In this document: in pieces, positions 1,746-11,931 of the stretch | Position numbering within the stretch: the stretch's first letter is position 1 | Layout of the letters: each line of letters begins with the position of its first letter | DNA from: an uncultured Nitrososphaerota archaeon | Lineage (GTDB): Archaea; Thermoproteota; Nitrososphaeria; Nitrososphaerales; Gagatemarchaeaceae | DNA: 64,000 nucleotides | Direction: 5' to 3' | NCBI GenBank assembly: GCA_963703285.1 | Contig: OY969807.1 | Location: forward strand, 352,001 to 416,000 | The notes under the pieces: model-generated | What the model was told of the DNA's origin: nothing | Seen by the model: the letters and a program-made list of their open reading frames with translations, nothing else | Database searches by the model: none | Translations under genes and position numbers: made by a program

Positions 1746-4445
1746 ATGAAAGCAAGGGGGATACTCGTCCTGCTGCTGGTGGTCTCTCTCGCCCTGGTAC
1801 CCGTGCTGGTCTCCGTCCCGGTCCGCGCCTCGGGCCAGTACACGGAGAGCCTGGTCGTCTACACGGCTGGGACGAGCGCCTACTGGCAGATGTCGTTCAA
1901 CCAGCTGAACGCATCGATCCCGGCCCTGGCGTCCGCCGAGTCGACTGCGGGCCTCACCTCATACCGGCTAGTCGCGATGTCCACGCAGGAGGCGACCTCC
2001 GATCTCCAGGTCTTCGGGGTTGACGGGTTCAACGTCCTGGGCGTGCCTTCGCTCCCCTCCGAGGCTCTCTTCCTGGACGTCAACGCGTCGAGCAGCTCAG
2101 CGGCCTCGGCGATCGTATCGTATTTCGCCGGCAGGTTCGACACCACCTTCACGCTCGTATCGTCCGGCTCCGGGACGTTCGTCTACTCGGCCCCGGTCAA
2201 CTTCGTGGGCGTCGCGGCGCCGGTCCTCTACCGGCTCGTGCCGAGCGCCATGAAGGGCTTCGCCGCCTACATGACCGAGCCGGTCTTCGTCGGTCTCGCG
2301 ATGCCCTCGATTGAGCTCTACGGTGTCAACGACGGATCGGGCTTCAGTCACTCCATAACGATAGGTGCAGCCGCGACGAGCGCAGTGACCTCGGGGAGCC
2401 CCATCAGCATCGTCGGGATACTCGGCGATTCCAGCTCAACCCTGACCGCCTCGTCATCCTCCTCTTCGAGCGAGGTCACGGTCCACGCCCTGGACGGCGT
2501 GATACAGTCGACCGACAAGACCGCCACCATGTCCAACGACGCCTCCAGCTTCTCGGGCACGTACTCCCTCCCGGTCACCGCCGGGGCCAACGTCGACGCC
2601 AACGTCACGATCTCCACCACGCCTGTGACGGCCATCGCCTACAGGCTGTTCGACCGAGGCTCGCTGACCGCCGGCCAGAACCTCACGGTGTCCGTCTTCG
2701 TCGAGAATACGGCAAAGAGCGGCGTGATCGCCAACGTCACCGGTGACGACGACTGGTGGAAGGCCGACTCGTCCGTCTTCAAGCTCGTGAGCGGGAACTA
2801 CAGCTTCGACATACCGTCCATCGCGGCGGGACAGAACTACACCGAATCCTACGTCCTCCAGGTGCTCACCTCCTCGGGCCAGCAGGTCGCGGTGCCCTCG
2901 GCGTCCGTGGGCTTCCAGTACGCTCTCTCCACGGAGAGCTACAGGGGTGAGGCCGAGCTCGGCGAGGCGACCCTCCAGGTGAACAACTTGGGACCTGCGG
3001 TCTCGGTCACCGCCCGGCCGACCATCTCGTCCGGCTCTGCGCTCGGCACGGACGGGAACTACACCCTCACCGTTACCAACAACGGCAACTCGCCCGCCCT
3101 CAACCTCAAGGTGGGGAAGGCCTCGATACAGAGCCTGTTACAGGGAGCGACGCAGACCGTGAACGTCCCGATCACGCTCTCGAACCTGCTCCAGAGCAAC
3201 CTCACAAGGACGTTCCCGCTGGAGTTCTCCAACTCAAACGGACAGACCCAGAACGTGACGTCGAACTCTGTGACGCTCGACCTCTCGCACGCTGGCATGG
3301 TGATACCCCTGCTGCAGGTCTCCACGAACGACTCGCTGACGGCCAGCTCGCTCGCGTCCCGTGTCCTGAACGTCACCTACACCTTCACCAACGGCGGCTC
3401 CGGAACCTCCGGGACGGTCGTGGGGACCCAGGTCCTTCCGCCCGGTGTCACCTGCAAGATTCTGAAGGCTGGGAACGCCACGGTCGCGTGCTCTGGGGGG
3501 TTGTACACGATGACGATCCCGATACTCACCGTCTCGGACACGGTCGTCAACGAAATTCAGCTCAGCTTCGCCCGGGACAACTACATTATCCCTCCCGCAA
3601 TCATGACGACGTCCTACGAGGGGGCGACGCTGCACACGTTCGGCTCACCCTACCTGGTGCCCGCCGGCGTAGTCCTCACGAAATCTTTCGGGCTCTCCGG
3701 AGGGTTCCCCGGGATGACCTCCTCCGTCACGCTCGGCATAACCAACGCCGGCTCGACGCCCGTCTACAACGCGACCCTCAGCTCGTCCCAGGACCCCTTC
3801 GACTCGGCCAGCGGGACACTTAGCCACACGTACGCTTCGCTCACCTCCCAGCAGTCCGAGAGCTTCAACTACACGGTGGAGCTGACGACGGGTGCCTACG
3901 GGATTGAGAATTCATCCGCGGCTACCGTCGACCTGGTGCTCGGCGGCCTCACCACGACCTTCTCCTCGGGTCCGGCCCAGATACAAGTCTACAAGCCGGT
4001 CTCCGCGGTGGTGACGTCCAACCCCTCTACACCGGAGGAAAACCATGACTTCACAATCTCGATAACCTTCGTGAACTCCGCCAACGTAACAGTCTCCGAC
4101 GCGACCTACAAGGTGACGATCCCGACCGGTCTCAAGGTACTCTCCGGCGGGCAGGTATCGGGCAAGACGCTGACGGTCTCCGTGGCGACGCTCGGTCCAG
4201 ACTCGAACCAGACCCAGACCGTGACGCTCTCCTCGTCGATGGGCCTCACGTTCGACCTCTCCTCGTCTCACGTCACCTTCCAGTACCAGGGGTCCTCGCT
4301 CTCGGGCCTTGCCCCCGCGAAGTCAATCAGGGTAGCCGTAGACGTCACGCTGAGGTACACCTTGCCGATAGCCGTGGCGATATTGATAGCCATAGCGGGA
4401 TTGGTTTACATGCGGCGCAGAATCACCCCCGCCGTCGAGAAATGA
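1746..4445 (+). CDS. Large Ser/Thr-rich cell-surface (S-layer-like) protein with Ig-like repeats
   Basis: N-terminal signal peptide, repeated 'V.V.N.G' CARDB/DUF11-like strands, many N-x-S/T sequons, C-terminal TM helix followed by RRR. Confidence 0.75.
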   Translation: MKARGILVLLLVVSLALVPVLVSVPVRASGQYTESLVVYTAGTSAYWQMSFNQLNASIPALASAESTAGLTSYRLVAMSTQEATSDLQVFGVDGFNVLGVPSLPSEALFLDVNASSSSAASAIVSYFAGRFDTTFTLVSSGSGTFVYSAPVNFVGVAAPVLYRLVPSAMKGFAAYMTEPVFVGLAMPSIELYGVNDGSGFSHSITIGAAATSAVTSGSPISIVGILGDSSSTLTASSSSSSSEVTVHALDGVIQSTDKTATMSNDASSFSGTYSLPVTAGANVDANVTISTTPVTAIAYRLFDRGSLTAGQNLTVSVFVENTAKSGVIANVTGDDDWWKADSSVFKLVSGNYSFDIPSIAAGQNYTESYVLQVLTSSGQQVAVPSASVGFQYALSTESYRGEAELGEATLQVNNLGPAVSVTARPTISSGSALGTDGNYTLTVTNNGNSPALNLKVGKASIQSLLQGATQTVNVPITLSNLLQSNLTRTFPLEFSNSNGQTQNVTSNSVTLDLSHAGMVIPLLQVSTNDSLTASSLASRVLNVTYTFTNGGSGTSGTVVGTQVLPPGVTCKILKAGNATVACSGGLYTMTIPILTVSDTVVNEIQLSFARDNYIIPPAIMTTSYEGATLHTFGSPYLVPAGVVLTKSFGLSGGFPGMTSSVTLGITNAGSTPVYNATLSSSQDPFDSASGTLSHTYASLTSQQSESFNYTVELTTGAYGIENSSAATVDLVLGGLTTTFSSGPAQIQVYKPVSAVVTSNPSTPEENHDFTISITFVNSANVTVSDATYKVTIPTGLKVLSGGQVSGKTLTVSVATLGPDSNQTQTVTLSSSMGLTFDLSSSHVTFQYQGSSLSGLAPAKSIRVAVDVTLRYTLPIAVAILIAIAGLVYMRRRITPAVEK

Positions 4446-4921
4446 CTCCCGCAGGCTCCCGACACGTCGCGGGACCGAGTCCAACCTCTGGCCGCGCCGA
4501 GGAGCGGTCGGCCGGCGCCCTCGTCTTCAACGAGTCCTCCACCGGGAGGAGGTATCTCCTCCTGGAGTATCCCGCGGGGCACTGGGACTTCCCGAAGGGG
4601 AACATCGAGAAGGGCGAGGCCCCCCAGCAGACGATGGTCCGCGAGGTTCGGGAGGAGACGGGGCTCGTCGACGTAGTTCCCGTGCCCGGCTTCAGGAAGG
4701 TCATAGAGTACTACTACAAGAGGGGCGGAAAGACCGTCCACAAGCAGGTCACCTTCTTCCTGGCCGAGTCGAAGGTCGACAAGGTGGTCCTCTCCTTCGA
4801 ACACAGGGACTACGCCTGGCTTACGTTCGATGAGGCGATGAAGCTGGTGAACCACTCCAACTCCACGATGCTGCTCCGTGCGGCCGAAGATTCCTTCAGG
4901 CCGCGGTCAGAGCAAGGTTGA
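4442..4921 (+). CDS. Nudix hydrolase, Ap4A hydrolase-like
   Basis: HWDFPKG followed by the Nudix box GNIEKGE...REVREETG; LSFEH..YAWL. Confidence 0.9.
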   Translation: MTPAGSRHVAGPSPTSGRAEERSAGALVFNESSTGRRYLLLEYPAGHWDFPKGNIEKGEAPQQTMVREVREETGLVDVVPVPGFRKVIEYYYKRGGKTVHKQVTFFLAESKVDKVVLSFEHRDYAWLTFDEAMKLVNHSNSTMLLRAAEDSFRPRSEQG

Positions 4922-5633
4922 TCTCTCTCAGGGCTAGGATTGGGGAGTCGGCGTCCACGACGGACCTCCCCACGATGGCGAAGTCAGCGCCTGCATCCAG
5001 CAGGGCCCTGTCGGCGCTCCCTCCCTGAGCCCCCACTCCCGGACTCAGGATGAGCTGGTCGCTCCTCAGGATGGCCCTCACCTCGCGGATTATCGACGGC
5101 GACTTGGCGGAGACCACCGCACCGTCGGCGTCCCAGTCCCTGACGCGCCTCGCGAACTCCAGGTAGAGCGGCTTTCCGTCCACGACCAACCCGTAACCCT
5201 CCCTCGCACCAGCGTGGCTCATGTAGACGAGGAGGATCACCCCCTTCCCCTGCGCCCTGGACCTCGAGATCACCCTTGAGAGCCCCTCCTCGGCCCCCAC
5301 GAAGGGGTTCGCGATGACCGCGTCTATCCCGCTCGAGTAGAGCAGGTCCACGGTCTCGAGGTTCGTCGACTCTATGTCGTTCAGCTTGATGTCGGCTATC
5401 ACGGGGAGTCCCTTGCTGAAGGTAACCCCGAAGACCTCCCGGAGGCCCTCGAGCCCCCCGGGGAGGAGGATGTGGAATTGGACCTTCACGGCTGCGATCT
5501 CGTCCCCGACCTGTCGGAGGAGTTCTGCCGCCCTCGCAGCCCTCGTCTCCGGAGGCCCCTTCAGGTCGAGGCCGAGGACGATGCGGCTGGAGTGCCTTTT
5601 CGATGATGAGAGTAGGCTCTCCCGAAATCCCAC
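4896..5633 (-). CDS. pyrF: Orotidine 5'-phosphate decarboxylase
   Basis: IADIKLNDIEST (DxKxxDI), SPGVGAQGG, IVGRS. Confidence 0.95.
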   Translation of the reverse strand: MGFRESLLSSSKRHSSRIVLGLDLKGPPETRAARAAELLRQVGDEIAAVKVQFHILLPGGLEGLREVFGVTFSKGLPVIADIKLNDIESTNLETVDLLYSSGIDAVIANPFVGAEEGLSRVISRSRAQGKGVILLVYMSHAGAREGYGLVVDGKPLYLEFARRVRDWDADGAVVSAKSPSIIREVRAILRSDQLILSPGVGAQGGSADRALLDAGADFAIVGRSVVDADSPILALREINLALTAA

Positions 5634-6316
5634 TAGAACTCCACCAGCGGGTGTTTCTCCGCCAGCTTGATCACCTTGACGTAGTAGAACCCGTGCTCGT
5701 CGGTCCGCTTGCTGAAGCCCGTCTCGGCGACGTTGGTGGGGGAGTACTTTACGAACCCCGTGGTGGGCTCGTCCTTCATCTTGGTGTAGAAGAACAGCGA
5801 GGCCTCCTCGTAGTCATCGAGCCTTGCGAAGGACCCCACAATCCAGCTCGTCCCGACCTTGAAGGAGTAGAGGGGAAGTGGCGGCTCCTCATAGAGCATC
5901 TTGTATGTGGCTAGCTTCACCAGGGACGCCAGGTCCCCGACCTCGGCCGCAAGAAACTTCTGGTGGAACTCCCTCTTGTGCTCCAGAATGCTGGGCATCT
6001 TGAGGACGTGGATCACGGGGGAGTAGATGTAGGAAGGGGTCGAGGCGGAATCGACCAGCTGCACTTCCTCGGTCTCACCTGCGTTCCTGTAGGCGAGAAA
6101 CTCGCCGCCCTTCTCGGCCTCCGCGTAGTAGAAGATGGGCACGCCCATGAAGAGGTCATTCTGCACCGAGAGCCTCGTCGCCCCCCCGTGCTTGGACATG
6201 AAGATGGGCAGCTGAGCCCTCTCAAGCGCGCACGCAAGCCTTCCAAGCTCCAGGAGCCCGCCAAGCCTCACAAAGCATCCCCCGATTATCCTCCGGGTAA
6301 CCTTCTTGGCTGGCAA
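5633..6316 (-). CDS. Conserved archaeal hypothetical protein
   Basis: Host-like codon usage; abuts the pyrF start; upstream TATA-like TATTAAA. Confidence 0.65.
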   Translation of the reverse strand: MPAKKVTRRIIGGCFVRLGGLLELGRLACALERAQLPIFMSKHGGATRLSVQNDLFMGVPIFYYAEAEKGGEFLAYRNAGETEEVQLVDSASTPSYIYSPVIHVLKMPSILEHKREFHQKFLAAEVGDLASLVKLATYKMLYEEPPLPLYSFKVGTSWIVGSFARLDDYEEASLFFYTKMKDEPTTGFVKYSPTNVAETGFSKRTDEHGFYYVKVIKLAEKHPLVEF

Positions 6317-8973: not shown

Positions 8974-9036
8974 CTGTTAATAACAGTGTTAATGGAAAAG
9001 GTTAACATCGTTGCCATTAAATATTACATATGTTAT
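8974..9036. promoter_or_regulatory. Divergent promoter with palindromic operator candidates
   Basis: CTGTTA-A-TAACAG (8974-8986), TAACA-G-TGTTA (8981-8991), GTTAACA (9001-9007), TTAAATAT TATA-like, ACATATGT palindrome just before the ZIP start. Confidence 0.6.
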
Positions 9037-9046
9037 GGCCGGCCCG

Positions 9047-9796
9047 ATGGTCGACTTCGTGGAGGCCGTGGCCCTCTCCGCCGTCATGGGCTTCTCGATA
9101 TTCATCTCTCTCCCCATCGTCCTCCGGATGCGTACAAGCAGCATATTGAACAAGCTCCTCCTCGCCGCCGCCATAGGGATACTGATCTTCCTGATGGGAG
9201 ACGTCTGGGGAGACTCCGCCGCGATAATGTTCAACGGCTCTCTGTACGGCTACGGGACCTCTCCCTACTTCGACTTGATCTTCACGGGCGCCCTCTGCTT
9301 CGGTTTCCTGGCGCTCTACTACGGCGAGAACAGGAGGAGGTCGGGGCTCTCACCCTCGCAGACGGGGCTCATCATCGCCCTTGGAATCGGATTCCAGAAC
9401 CTGACCGAGGGGCTGATATTCGGAGCCCTCGCGGCCTCGTTCGGGCTCTCTGGGGTCGCCCTCGTCGTCCTGTTCGGTTTCGTCCTGCAGAACATCACGG
9501 AGGGTTTCCCGATAGCGTCCCCCTTCCTCGGCCTTTCGGACAAGAAGCCCTGGGCGATGGCCTCTCTCTTCTTCGTGGGCGGAGTACCGACCGTCCTGGG
9601 AGGCGCCTTCGGCTTCTTCTATAGCTCCGGCGCCTTCGAGGTCTTCTTCGGGGGTCTCGCCATAGGTGCCATACTCTACGCAGTCCTGCCCATGCTGAAG
9701 TCGATGTTCAGGGACTCCGAGCACGCCGCCCAGAGGGTGACATACCTGGGCATATTCCTCGGCTTCCTCGTCGGCTTCCTGGTGAACCTGATCTGA
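9047..9796 (+). CDS. ZIP-family divalent metal transporter
   Basis: ~8 TM; IALGIGFQNLTEG and LQNITEG equivalents of the HNxPEG motifs. Confidence 0.88.
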   Translation: MVDFVEAVALSAVMGFSIFISLPIVLRMRTSSILNKLLLAAAIGILIFLMGDVWGDSAAIMFNGSLYGYGTSPYFDLIFTGALCFGFLALYYGENRRRSGLSPSQTGLIIALGIGFQNLTEGLIFGALAASFGLSGVALVVLFGFVLQNITEGFPIASPFLGLSDKKPWAMASLFFVGGVPTVLGGAFGFFYSSGAFEVFFGGLAIGAILYAVLPMLKSMFRDSEHAAQRVTYLGIFLGFLVGFLVNLI

Positions 9797-9799
9797 CTG

Positions 9800-9874
9800 C
9801 TAACTTCCCGTCCTCCGCTTTCTCTTCTGGTAGGTCCTTATTGCGCGCAAGAGGTCTATCTTGCGGAAAGAGGG
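9800..9874 (-). repeat. Orphan duplicate of the uppS 3' end (PSFRKIDLLRAIRTYQKRKRRTGS*)
   Basis: Encodes 19 consecutive residues identical to the uppS C-terminus at 10023-10091, with different synonymous codons. Confidence 0.9.
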
Positions 9875-9889
9875 TCGAGTAGAGATTCA

Positions 9890-10022
9890 ATGAACATGAG
9901 TGTTCATAAGACCTAGGAAAGGAAATCCCTTGAGATAGAGGCCTTGGCCAAGCGAGGAGTAAAGGACTTTTCTCAGTGGGAACGCGCTTGGATTGGCGAA
10001 CTTGTCGCTGTTCAGGCGTTGA
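9890..10022 (+). pseudogene. Decayed ORF remnant between the two uppS tails
   Basis: ATG 9890, in-frame TAG 9914-9916, then ERKSLEIEALAKRGVKDFSQWERAWIGELVAVQAL; lower GC than host genes. Confidence 0.4.
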
Positions 10023-10814
10023 TCATCTACCTAGTCTTCGTTTCCGCTTTTGGTAGGTACGTATTGCGCGTAACAAATCAATTTTTCTAAACGCCGGCCA
10101 GTAGACGTCCATGAAGATTAGCTCGCTGTAGGCTCCCTGCCAGAGGAGGAACCCGCTCATCCTCTCCTCCCCCGAGGTGCGTATTATCAGGTCGGGCTCG
10201 GGGTTGGGCAGGTGGGATGTGTAGAGCCTACCGGCTATGGTGTCCTCTCCGATCCTCGAGGGGTCGAGCGTCCCATTCTTCACGTCCTCTGCTATCGACC
10301 TGACGACGTCCGTAATCTCGGCCCTCCCGCCGTAGGCTATGGCTATGTTCAGGAAGTGCCCGTCGTAGGCTGCGGTCCTCTCCTCCACCTCTCTCAGGAT
10401 GTCGAGGAGCGACTTGGGCAGGACGTCGAACTTGCCGATCCCCTTGACCCTCACCCTGTACTTGTAGATTCGTTCGTCCGTAAGCAGCTTCTGGAGCCTC
10501 TCCTCGATCAGCCTGAAGAGCTCCTGCACCTCCTCCGAGGTCCTCTGCAGGTTCTCGGTCGAGAGCACGTAGAGCGTTATCGATTTGATGCCGATCTCGT
10601 GGCACCAGTCGAGGAGCTTCTCGACGACGTCGGCCCCGTAGGCGTGCCCCGCGTCCACGGAGTACCTGCGGTCCTGCGCCCACCTCCTGTTGCCGTCGAG
10701 GATTATCCCGACGTGCCCCGGAATCGGGCCGTCCTCGACCTGCCAGCTCAGCCTGTTCTCGTAGAACCTGTACGCCCCGGTCGCCCTAAGCAGCCCGTCA
10801 AGCACTCGTGTCAC
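10023..10814 (-). CDS. uppS: Polyprenyl diphosphate synthase (cis-prenyltransferase)
   Basis: HVGIILDGNRRWA, LSTENLQR, IAYGGRAEI, IIRTSGEERMSGFLLWQ.AYSE. Confidence 0.96.
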   Translation of the reverse strand: MTRVLDGLLRATGAYRFYENRLSWQVEDGPIPGHVGIILDGNRRWAQDRRYSVDAGHAYGADVVEKLLDWCHEIGIKSITLYVLSTENLQRTSEEVQELFRLIEERLQKLLTDERIYKYRVRVKGIGKFDVLPKSLLDILREVEERTAAYDGHFLNIAIAYGGRAEITDVVRSIAEDVKNGTLDPSRIGEDTIAGRLYTSHLPNPEPDLIIRTSGEERMSGFLLWQGAYSELIFMDVYWPAFRKIDLLRAIRTYQKRKRRLGR

Positions 10815-11931
10815 TCCTGAGCATCGGGTTCCTGCTCCTTATGCGGCCGTAGAGCGCGGTCAGGACGGCGAAGGCGACCGCGAGCGTCAGGAGGACGTAC
10901 GAGATGAGCAGGACCGAGCTGTTGGCCCCGCCGGTCAGGACTACCGCGAACTGGTCGACGGGCAGGTAGAGCAGGCCGAGCAGGACTATGAGGACGCCGT
11001 CCCGCCAGACCCTCCTCGACCCCCTCGCCAGGTGGGCGAGCAGCGCCCCGATGAGGTAGACCGCGTAGGCGGCCCAGACGAGGGGGATTGCCCCCTCCAT
11101 GTACCATCCCACGAGCGTCGGTCCGACGATGAGGAACTTCGCCGGGTCGGCCACCACCTGGGCGATGCCGCCCGCGTCGTTCGAGCTCATGTAGGAGTAC
11201 CCAGCCGAGAGCCCCACCAGGAAGATCAGCGTGCCAGCCACGGCCGAGAAGATCCTGAGGTAGCCGTACGGTCTCTGGCTGAGCATCGCGGCGACCGAGC
11301 GGTCCACGCCGAACCCCCTGACGAAGAACGTCGAGCCGAGTATCAGAAGGATCGCTATTCCCGCCTCGTAGGCGCGCCCGAACAGGACCAGGACGCCCGC
11401 AAAGAGGAAGATGACCCCCGGGACTCCGATTACCCACTTGGAGTATCGCTCGTCGAAGACTAGCATCCTGAGGTACCTACCCAGGACCATGTAGGTCTCC
11501 TCAACCGTCCTGCTGTGCTTGACCGCGATCCTGACCACCGAGGCGACGGGCTTCATCGACTGTATTATCGGAAGTACCTGCTCGTCCTCGGCGCCGTCGG
11601 TGACCAGGACTATCCCCGAGAACTGCCCCTTGCTTAGGATGTTCTCTATCTCCCTCTTGATCTTCCTGTCGGCGTCGACGCCGTTGTCCGGGACGCCGCA
11701 CACGATCCCTATCTCGCAGCCCTCGCCCATCGACTGGAGCCTGTCGTACTCCCTCACCGCTGCGAAGAAGGAGTTGGCGTCGGCCTCCTCCGGGTCGGAG
11801 ATGGCGAGCTGCGTGGCGGCGGCGAGGACCTGCTCCCTCCCGAAGACGGGGGTGCGGACCCTCGTCTTGCTTTCTAGGTCTCCATCCCGGTCGACCGCGA
11901 GTATGAGCAGCCTGTCCCCCTGCGCGGACAT
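10798..11931 (-). CDS. DUF373-family membrane protein
   Basis: LILAVDRDGDL, DPEEADANS, VTDGAEDE, then multiple TM helices; DUF373 genes commonly neighbour uppS in archaea. Confidence 0.85.
   Translation of the reverse strand: MSAQGDRLLILAVDRDGDLESKTRVRTPVFGREQVLAAATQLAISDPEEADANSFFAAVREYDRLQSMGEGCEIGIVCGVPDNGVDADRKIKREIENILSKGQFSGIVLVTDGAEDEQVLPIIQSMKPVASVVRIAVKHSRTVEETYMVLGRYLRMLVFDERYSKWVIGVPGVIFLFAGVLVLFGRAYEAGIAILLILGSTFFVRGFGVDRSVAAMLSQRPYGYLRIFSAVAGTLIFLVGLSAGYSYMSSNDAGGIAQVVADPAKFLIVGPTLVGWYMEGAIPLVWAAYAVYLIGALLAHLARGSRRVWRDGVLIVLLGLLYLPVDQFAVVLTGGANSSVLLISYVLLTLAVAFAVLTALYGRIRSRNPMLRSDTSA

Follow-up and report, generated by a model that had tools for sequence, protein, structure and literature searches.

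Archaeal homing endonucleases are known from introns in rRNA and tRNA genes and from inteins, and T-even phages practise 'intronless homing' by means of the free-standing seg and mob endonucleases. In an Aeromonas phage, the insertion of mobE reportedly splits nrdA into two genes, the products of which reassemble as a protein. In fungal mitochondria, 'mORF' hybrids are described that consist of a gene body, a foreign C-terminal copy, a LAGLIDADG or GIY-YIG open reading frame (ORF) and the native C-terminal copy (PMC3630166), and in Endoconidiophora resinifera the duplicated C-terminal ends of cob and atp6 are accompanied by LAGLIDADG or GIY-YIG ORFs that have degenerated (PMC6279837). Here we describe a related arrangement in the chromosome of an uncultured Nitrososphaerota archaeon, within a stretch of 64,000 nucleotides (hereafter the window; contig OY969807.1, positions 352,001 to 416,000). 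In this window, the cis-prenyltransferase gene uppS carries a foreign, recoded 3′ end, and its native 3′ end lies orphaned downstream. The block between the uppS body and the orphan is very probably a decayed free-standing homing-endonuclease element that invaded uppS between residues A240 and F241.

The uppS coding sequence (10023..10814, minus strand; 263 codons plus stop) combines a native body with a foreign tail. Specifically, its last 22 sense codons, from F241 onwards, together with the TGA stop form an AT-rich, element-borne replacement tail (10023..10091, minus strand), and a GC-rich second tail of 22 codons plus TAG, detached from any gene, lies 154 bp further downstream on the same strand (9800..9868). 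The two tails encode 19 consecutive identical residues (FRKIDLLRAIRTYQKRKRR), 13 of the 19 codons being different, and are identical at 44 of 66 nt. Codons ending in A or T make up 16/22 of the active tail and 6/22 of the orphan, against a background of 23.9% in the long ORFs of this genome; the chance of at least 16/22 is 1.9e-6, and the 6/22 of the orphan is ordinary (P = 0.44). The active tail opens with codons that are rare in the genome (TTT, 9% of Phe; AGA, 7% of Arg; AAA, 10% of Lys; TTA, 1% of Leu), the G+C fraction at third codon positions (GC3) is 0.35 in the final 26 uppS codons versus 0.89 in the remainder, and overall GC is 0.46-0.50 across 9800-10149 versus about 0.6-0.7 in the flanks. 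The first-pass annotation of this DNA, made from its letters, had placed the two tails at 10091-10023 and 9868-9800, with the same residue and codon counts and with codon usage typical of the host in the orphan, and our coordinates, codon lists and probabilities agree with it on each of these points.

The recoded segment belongs to the functional part of the protein. The Pfam profile PF01255 matches uppS (E = 1.2e-74) over residues 38-262 and over all of its own length (positions 1-219 of 219), which places the final 22 codons inside the conserved domain. An intron or intein was considered and rejected, because uppS is translated without interruption to its own stop, with this full-length match, and the insert is located past the stop codon. 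The arrangement is also singular in its genome. The 223-bp block 9869-10091 was searched, as part of the 341-nt stretch 9780-10120, against the 2.25-Mb genome, which is a single contig; the stretch occurs there once, and of 10 matches at E <= 10 the 9 others are no more than 14-23 nt in length. A genome-wide scan, in which the last 30 residues of 9291 ORF ends were compared by 5-residue words with the 3 kb downstream, returned 31 matches with at least 14/30 identical residues, 12 of them restricted to the tail. In uppS alone did a tail of high protein identity go together with a majority of changed codons (21/30 residues identical, 15/21 codons different).

The relatives of this archaeon provide both filled and empty versions of the locus (genomes are denoted below by G numbers and loci by L numbers). 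We detected uppS in 37 of 41 related genomes and compared 18 loci of the genus, leaving outside the comparison G011 and G022, the matches of which are split or multiple. Four of the 18 loci are filled and 14 have no second tail; in the genomes of these 14, the nuclease fragment has no match linked to uppS. In the filled alleles of G009 (L010), G014 (L011) and G002 (L014), the same AT-type tail is followed by 474-484 bp, the orphan tail and a gene for a ZIP-like membrane protein, which converges on uppS and in the window occupies 9011..9796 of the plus strand (PF02535, E = 2.6e-5, below the curated cut-off). In the alignment, G001, G010, G004 and G015 are empty alleles in which the uppS tail stands directly beside this convergent ZIP gene, as had been anticipated from the window. 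The orphan finds its nearest matches among the native tails of the genus (52-53/66 nt, those of G001 and G010 being among the closest at 53/66), and the active tail shares 34-46/66 nt with native tails of the genus, except for those of G004 and G015 (51). Since uninterrupted tails of the genus have a GC3 of 0.62-0.92, the AT-rich tail is not ancestral there, again in line with the first-pass annotation; low-GC families of the same order natively use AT-type tail codons (for example, L038), which is consistent with a foreign origin. The same order of parts recurs in five other assemblies (G009, G014, G002, G225 and a separate metagenome contig, L059), and the insert boundaries match to the codon across two genera. 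A further aberrant tail, that of L025 in G008, proved to be a 1-nt frameshift within an otherwise empty allele.

Among the uninterrupted tails, those of G004, G015, G021 and G003 (L016, L017, L024 and L026) open with the rare TTT AGA or TTT AGG, and those of G004 and G015 are mosaics of element-type and native-type codons, with 51/66 nt identical to the element tail and 48-49 to the orphan. All element tails, including a GC-rich copy in G002, encode the first Arg as AGA; in most native tails of the genus this Arg is CGC, CGG or CGT, with AGG in G021 and AGA in G003. The four uninterrupted tails may have been left behind by an element that has since disappeared.

Within the window, the element is truncated. 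The insert between the tails measures 151 nt, versus 479 and 484 nt in G009 and G014, and because this spacer aligns with both ends of the longer insert, it represents that insert minus 328-333 bp, with the deletion junction at 10010/10011. On one side of the junction lies the 5′ part of an endonuclease gene (9869..10010, plus strand), comprising a leader and about 33 N-terminal codons and ending within the LAGLIDADG motif; on the other lies its 3′ stub (10011..10022, plus strand), recognized when the full-length inserts of L010 and L011 are aligned to it, which holds the last three sense codons and a stop that abuts the uppS stop, tail-to-tail. A 48-aa ORF (9944-10090) reads across the junction, and 9917-10030 has 76% identity to residues 1-38 of the G014 frame. 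Contigs of the peat run X4, from a relative at 90-95%, depart from the window sequence at 10009/10010 and continue into a full-length endonuclease insert. The block at 9869-10091 (223 bp) is a decayed mobile element, in which the nuclease gene is a fossil with about 330 bp lost. Run X2 contains two contigs, both identical to the window, that end and begin exactly at the deletion junction (10011/10012), which a contig of run X1 crosses; this hints that deleted and undeleted forms of the insert coexist in the X2 sample.

The longer inserts of relatives hold an open frame on the strand opposite uppS. Among 401 genomes of the order, nine have matches to the G014 fragment at E <= 0.01, and in five of the nine (G000, G002, G009, G014 and G225) the match is linked to uppS. 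G225, which belongs to another genus, retains an intact ORF of 151 aa (L041, 714-1169, minus strand, opposite uppS), placed between a replacement tail at 645-713, where uppS ends at 713, and an orphan tail that starts at 1172, that is, 2 nt past the ATG of the ORF; the stop of the ORF abuts that of uppS. Tail and orphan agree here at 18 of 23 positions, 13 of these 18 being encoded by different codons. The first-pass annotation had predicted an intact nuclease between the tails of filled alleles, which holds for G225 and does not hold for the window, with its copy lacking the about 330 bp described above.

An AlphaFold2 model of the G225 ORF (mean predicted local distance difference test (pLDDT) score of 82.7) has the alpha-beta-beta-alpha-beta-beta-alpha core of LAGLIDADG enzymes. 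All 49 matches listed by Foldseek among PDB entries at E <= 1e-3 are LAGLIDADG enzymes, with I-MsoI the best at 1.7e-5 (35 rows in the table, further chains of listed entries being omitted), and all 50 entries listed by VIA-align are LAGLIDADG proteins, with I-CreI the best (Z 11.9, root-mean-square deviation of 2.9 Å over 120 residues). The motif W-L-G-G-L-V-V-G-E-G occupies residues 32-41, G39 and E40 are invariant in 7/7 aligned relatives, and E40 would be the residue that binds metal. A homodimer of the ORF was predicted, scoring 0.73 where the best of 3 controls scored 0.00, relative to a mark reached by 20/30 solved one-chain pairs and 1/23 solved single chains, a pass that may merely reflect the similar complexes already solved. 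At least 97% of contacts recur between the dimer runs, the pLDDT of the partner is at least 78, and the predicted interface involves residues 27-40 (the motif helix), 75-83 and 119-124. The G225 ORF is thus predicted to adopt the fold of a single-motif LAGLIDADG homing endonuclease of the I-CreI class, with dimerization through the motif helix.

The family is rare. Only 17 representatives were found at E <= 1e-3 among 1.84 billion, including a second intact protein (P0002, 172 aa, 52% identity), the C-terminal extension of which resembles, by eye, the antisense of a uppS tail. A word-indexed protein search returned the G225 protein itself and nothing else (1/14 candidates), a scan of viral contigs found no relative of the nuclease, a scan of a genome collection yielded G225, G014 and G009 again and no others, and a metagenome scan added one further locus, which is degraded.

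The element is younger than the host species that carry it. Among G000, G009 and G014, synonymous divergence (dS) is 0.74-0.87 in the uppS body, where four-fold sites are 43-60% identical, and 0-0.20 in the tail. The tail of the window matches that of G009 at 71/72 nt and that of G014 at 68/72 nt, the uppS bodies being 83-84% identical; likewise, among identical residues, identical codons are found at 23/24 positions in the tail versus 136/211 in the body (Fisher p = 0.00095). Across the window, G009 and G014, the nuclease remnant retains 83-89% identity, and between the frames of G014 and G009 dS is 0.34 and the ratio of non-synonymous to synonymous divergence (dN/dS) is 0.15, indicating that the nuclease was under selection as the copies diverged. 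Identity is 74-86% in the orphan and 76-81% in the ZIP gene, in keeping with host DNA, so the young segment corresponds exactly to the tail plus the nuclease gene. In a tree of uppS bodies, four filled and three empty alleles are interspersed in a clade of 7 species (support 83/81), the filled G014 grouping with the empty G001 and G010 (support 85/94), and this interspersion points to horizontal spread. The G002 copy is GC-rich (67%) and far more diverged (tail dS 1.4-1.8), and is either older or a separate arrival. The copies have decayed independently, with lesions that differ from one to the next: one frameshift in G014; a stop and a frameshift in G009; a frameshift, a stop and an altered motif in G002; a frameshift and a stop in the metagenome contig L059; and the deletion in the window. 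Together, the data fit the cycle of invasion, fixation, decay and loss of homing endonuclease genes, and not the vertical descent of a dead insert.

How such an element would operate can be outlined as follows. The complete form, about 550 bp long, would comprise a 22-codon replacement end of uppS with its stop and, tail-to-tail with it on the opposite strand, a gene for a single-motif LAGLIDADG nuclease of the I-CreI class, about 130-150 aa in length. The homodimer would cut uninterrupted uppS alleles at or near A240/F241, and the break would be repaired from a filled allele, with the uppS body serving as the left homology arm and the native tail and downstream DNA, including the ZIP gene, as the right, such that the replacement tail and the nuclease gene would be copied in jointly. 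The essential uppS gene would stay whole because the element supplies its own 3′ end, the old end being displaced downstream as an orphan, and filled alleles would escape cutting with their target both split and recoded. In this genome, about 330 bp of the nuclease gene were subsequently lost, and uppS has kept its foreign tail permanently. We infer cleavage, the target site and immunity from the established behaviour of LAGLIDADG enzymes and from double-strand-break repair; among these points is the suggestion of the first-pass annotation that the recoding could destroy the target of the nuclease. Its broader proposal of homing without an intron or intein, by way of a replacement 3′ end, is supported here, and such replacement is already described for fungal mitochondria (PMC3630166).

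The habit of supplying a spare 3′ end extends beyond uppS. Four genomes (G009, G022, G020 and G001) contain high-scoring, more distant paralogues of the nuclease (30-38% identity), and in 4/4 of these the nuclease gene converges on tRNA-Ala(TGC), with an orphan copy of 15-30 nt of the 3′ part of the tRNA (from about position 46) located just past the start of the nuclease gene. Orphan and active 3′ parts are identical at 14/15, 17/18, 27/30 and 28/28 positions, and in G020 a compensatory pair and a single loop base set the active T-stem apart from the orphan one. From these layouts, the spare 3′ end is thus a habit of the nuclease family rather than an accident at uppS.

Two peculiarities of these tRNA-linked loci deserve mention. 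The tRNA-Ala genes beside the nuclease in G009 (98 nt; L061, 1891-1988, minus strand, with the nuclease at 1501-1890) and G022 (96 nt; L062, 1382-1477, plus strand) contain a hairpin-forming insertion of 21-23 nt at about 45/46, where the duplicated 3′ part starts, and those of G020 and G001 do not contain it; a non-canonical intron is one possible reading of the insertion, and a scar altering the target of the nuclease is another. In G001, two tandem tRNA-Ala-linked copies of the nuclease are joined in one 295-aa frame (L064, 1032-1916, minus strand), and protein P0007 (283 aa) is alike. Such a tandem frame could represent a natural fusion from homodimer to single chain, or two successive invasions.

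Several observations weigh against the homing element. Every copy in the genus is damaged, and intact ORFs are known only from G225 and P0002, so that the element may be inactive anywhere near this genome; the G225 contig is just 3.2 kb long and comes from the single genome in its genus, which therefore offers no empty allele. Searches of Pfam and NCBIfam gave no above-threshold match for any member, whether inter-tail frames or intact ORFs, and the family assignment rests on the predicted structure and one motif. Among the curated profiles compared (PF00961, PF03161 and PF14528), PF14528 gave matches below threshold, with E = 0.24 for a paralogue and 20.5 bits versus a cut-off of 22.5 for the distant relative P0017, and a search of PDB profiles gave a weak match to I-MsoI (E = 0.31), aligned at the motif. 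A homodimer would be expected to have palindromic half-sites, and no convincing ones were found around the insertion point. Across 13 uninterrupted alleles, the best half-sites scored 5-7/11, in the top percentile gene-wide and at inconsistent positions, and the scan brought out nothing above the gene-wide background. The orphan tRNA part of G001 is identical to the active one (28/28), showing that recoding is not a fixed property of the family. Finally, the low divergence of the element could reflect ordinary interspecies recombination or gene conversion without a nuclease.

The most probable of the alternatives is that the element is real and its LAGLIDADG protein does not drive its spread, being inactive or otherwise employed, the block moving passively by homologous recombination after DNA uptake. 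The damage to all copies in the genus, the lack of target symmetry and the lack of an above-threshold match to the sequence profiles of known active enzymes all favour such passive spread. By contrast, the protein was under selection as the copies of G014 and G009 diverged (dN/dS of 0.15), the acidic motif residue is kept in 7/7 relatives, and the recurrence of the same family and layout at the unrelated tRNA-Ala target is what a target-switching lineage of site-specific nucleases would produce. We therefore regard passive spread as improbable and retain the homing element as the preferred explanation.

Less probable still is an integrase-mediated insertion: a virus or plasmid, with the end of the gene duplicated in its attachment site, would have integrated at the 3′ end of uppS and left a scar after being deleted almost entirely. 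Insertion into the 3′ ends of genes with duplication of the end is common, as in phage 21 and e14 in icd of Escherichia coli, and there too the duplicated 3′ end keeps the gene intact and the old end comes to lie downstream. A likely example exists in the genome studied here. At a locus outside the window (L060, C1:2033000-2039400), the last 30 residues of the EF-2 gene (3819-6008, minus strand) are repeated 744 bp and 2258 bp downstream, the first repeat being 29/30 identical and the second 16/30, and between the first two copies of the EF-2 tail lies a PIN-domain (VapC-like) ORF (2993-3484, minus strand; PF01850, E = 5e-16). These repeats look like the duplication of an attachment site by integrating elements, a mechanism distinct from that at uppS. 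Integrase insertions need a recombinase and a shared core, whereas the uppS cargo is a single nuclease gene: the insert (223 bp here, about 550 bp in relatives) contains neither a recombinase gene nor identical attachment-core repeats, and the full-length form in four other assemblies holds just the tail and the small LAGLIDADG ORF. The longest exact stretch common to the two uppS tails is about 9 nt, unlike the first EF-2 repeat, in which just 3 of 29 codons differ, and at uppS two genera share the insert boundaries down to the codon.

Tandem duplication of the uppS 3′ end on the spot, with copies that drifted apart and a small ORF that is incidental, would explain why the tails lie 154 bp apart on one strand, and is slightly harder to credit again. 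An unused copy should gather amino-acid changes, yet 19 residues are identical between copies that differ in 13 codons; it is the active copy that uses the rare codons (TTT, AGA, AAA and TTA); this copy is near-identical across species with strongly diverged uppS bodies; and the orphan, not the active tail, resembles the native tails of relatives. The remaining possibility, an assembly artefact joining the uppS ends of two strains, can practically be dismissed: genomes derived from metagenomes can hold chimeric joins, and the X2 contigs do break exactly at 10011/10012, yet the five other assemblies share the order of parts and the X1 contig, 846 nt long and possibly derived from the source sample, covers 9600-10141 with 0 differences.

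A few further features of this genome are recorded here in their own right. Upstream of uppS in the window lies the gene for a DUF373 membrane protein (10798-11931, minus strand; PF04123, E = 4e-79), the end of which overlaps the uppS start by 17 nt. Elsewhere on the chromosome, a free-standing ORF of 171 aa with a clear LAGLIDADG-like motif (L054, 1123-1638, minus strand; C1:645203-645718) overlaps the start of an RNase H-like gene and has no Pfam match. Two frames of 585-586 aa, at C1:1702836-1703609 and C1:1720990-1721781, are both hit twice by the nuclease profile and so resemble LAGLIDADG proteins with two motifs; they could be inteins or enzymes encoded in introns, and no tRNA is located near either of them.

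The observations also allow a wider reading, which we hold with slightly more doubt than confidence. An undescribed, I-CreI-sized LAGLIDADG lineage in soil and peat archaea would home without introns or inteins by way of a spare 3′ end, would have crossed genera and switched between uppS and tRNA-Ala, and would display the whole cycle of invasion, decay and loss in cellular chromosomes; the tails of G004, G015, G021 and G003 would then be immune footprints, and the tandem frame of G001 a step to a single-chain enzyme. The homing element proposed for the window has implications of its own. It would open a route for homing endonucleases into an essential chromosomal gene without splicing and tie archaeal chromosomes to a mechanism of fungal mitochondria. 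It would also explain an annotation oddity, a patch of foreign codons at a gene end with an orphan end downstream, that lends itself to a simple genome-wide test. The predicted small natural nucleases of the I-CreI class, the likely targets of which can be read from empty alleles, are raw material for enzymology, and the tRNA-Ala cases are relevant to an old question, the origin of the odd insertions and duplicated halves in archaeal tRNA genes.

As to precedent, this kind of arrangement is already known outside archaea, mainly from fungal mitochondria, and we found no archaeal or uppS case in the titles and opening lines of abstracts in the literature searched, which lacked most subscription journals. 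With the seg and mob systems of T-even phages, the uppS element shares a nuclease gene that lies outside any intron or intein and that, as predicted for uppS, spreads by cutting alleles without it, with co-conversion of flanking markers; the phage enzymes are of the GIY-YIG or HNH type, reside between genes, bring no replacement gene end and act in mixed phage infection. With mobE in nrdA, it reportedly has in common that the gene of a free-standing homing endonuclease sits within an essential, conserved host gene, again without intron or intein; unlike nrdA, uppS stays in one piece by virtue of the 3′ end carried in. The closest enzymes are I-CreI, I-MsoI and I-CvuI (PDB 2o7m, 1m5x and 5a72), homodimeric LAGLIDADG endonucleases of group I introns in algal rRNA genes, with which the predicted G225 structure shares the fold over 117-121 residues (Z 11.5-11.9), a single motif per chain and a predicted dimer through the motif helix; in contrast to them, the G225 protein is not intron-encoded, has 12-15% identity to them and reads G-E-G instead of G-D-G in the motif. 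The closest arrangement is that of the mORFs. The order of parts is the same, the mORF nuclease is of the LAGLIDADG type in most cases, the inserted copy is conserved as protein and diverged as DNA, and the native copy matches close relatives, which have empty alleles. Unlike the mORFs, the uppS case lies on an archaeal chromosome and not in an organelle, its target is an essential lipid-carrier gene, its nuclease gene is on the opposite strand, tail-to-tail with the host gene, out of phase with it and not transcribed together with it, and its nuclease, single-motif, I-CreI-sized and unseen by Pfam, belongs to a family that also replaces the 3′ part of a tRNA.

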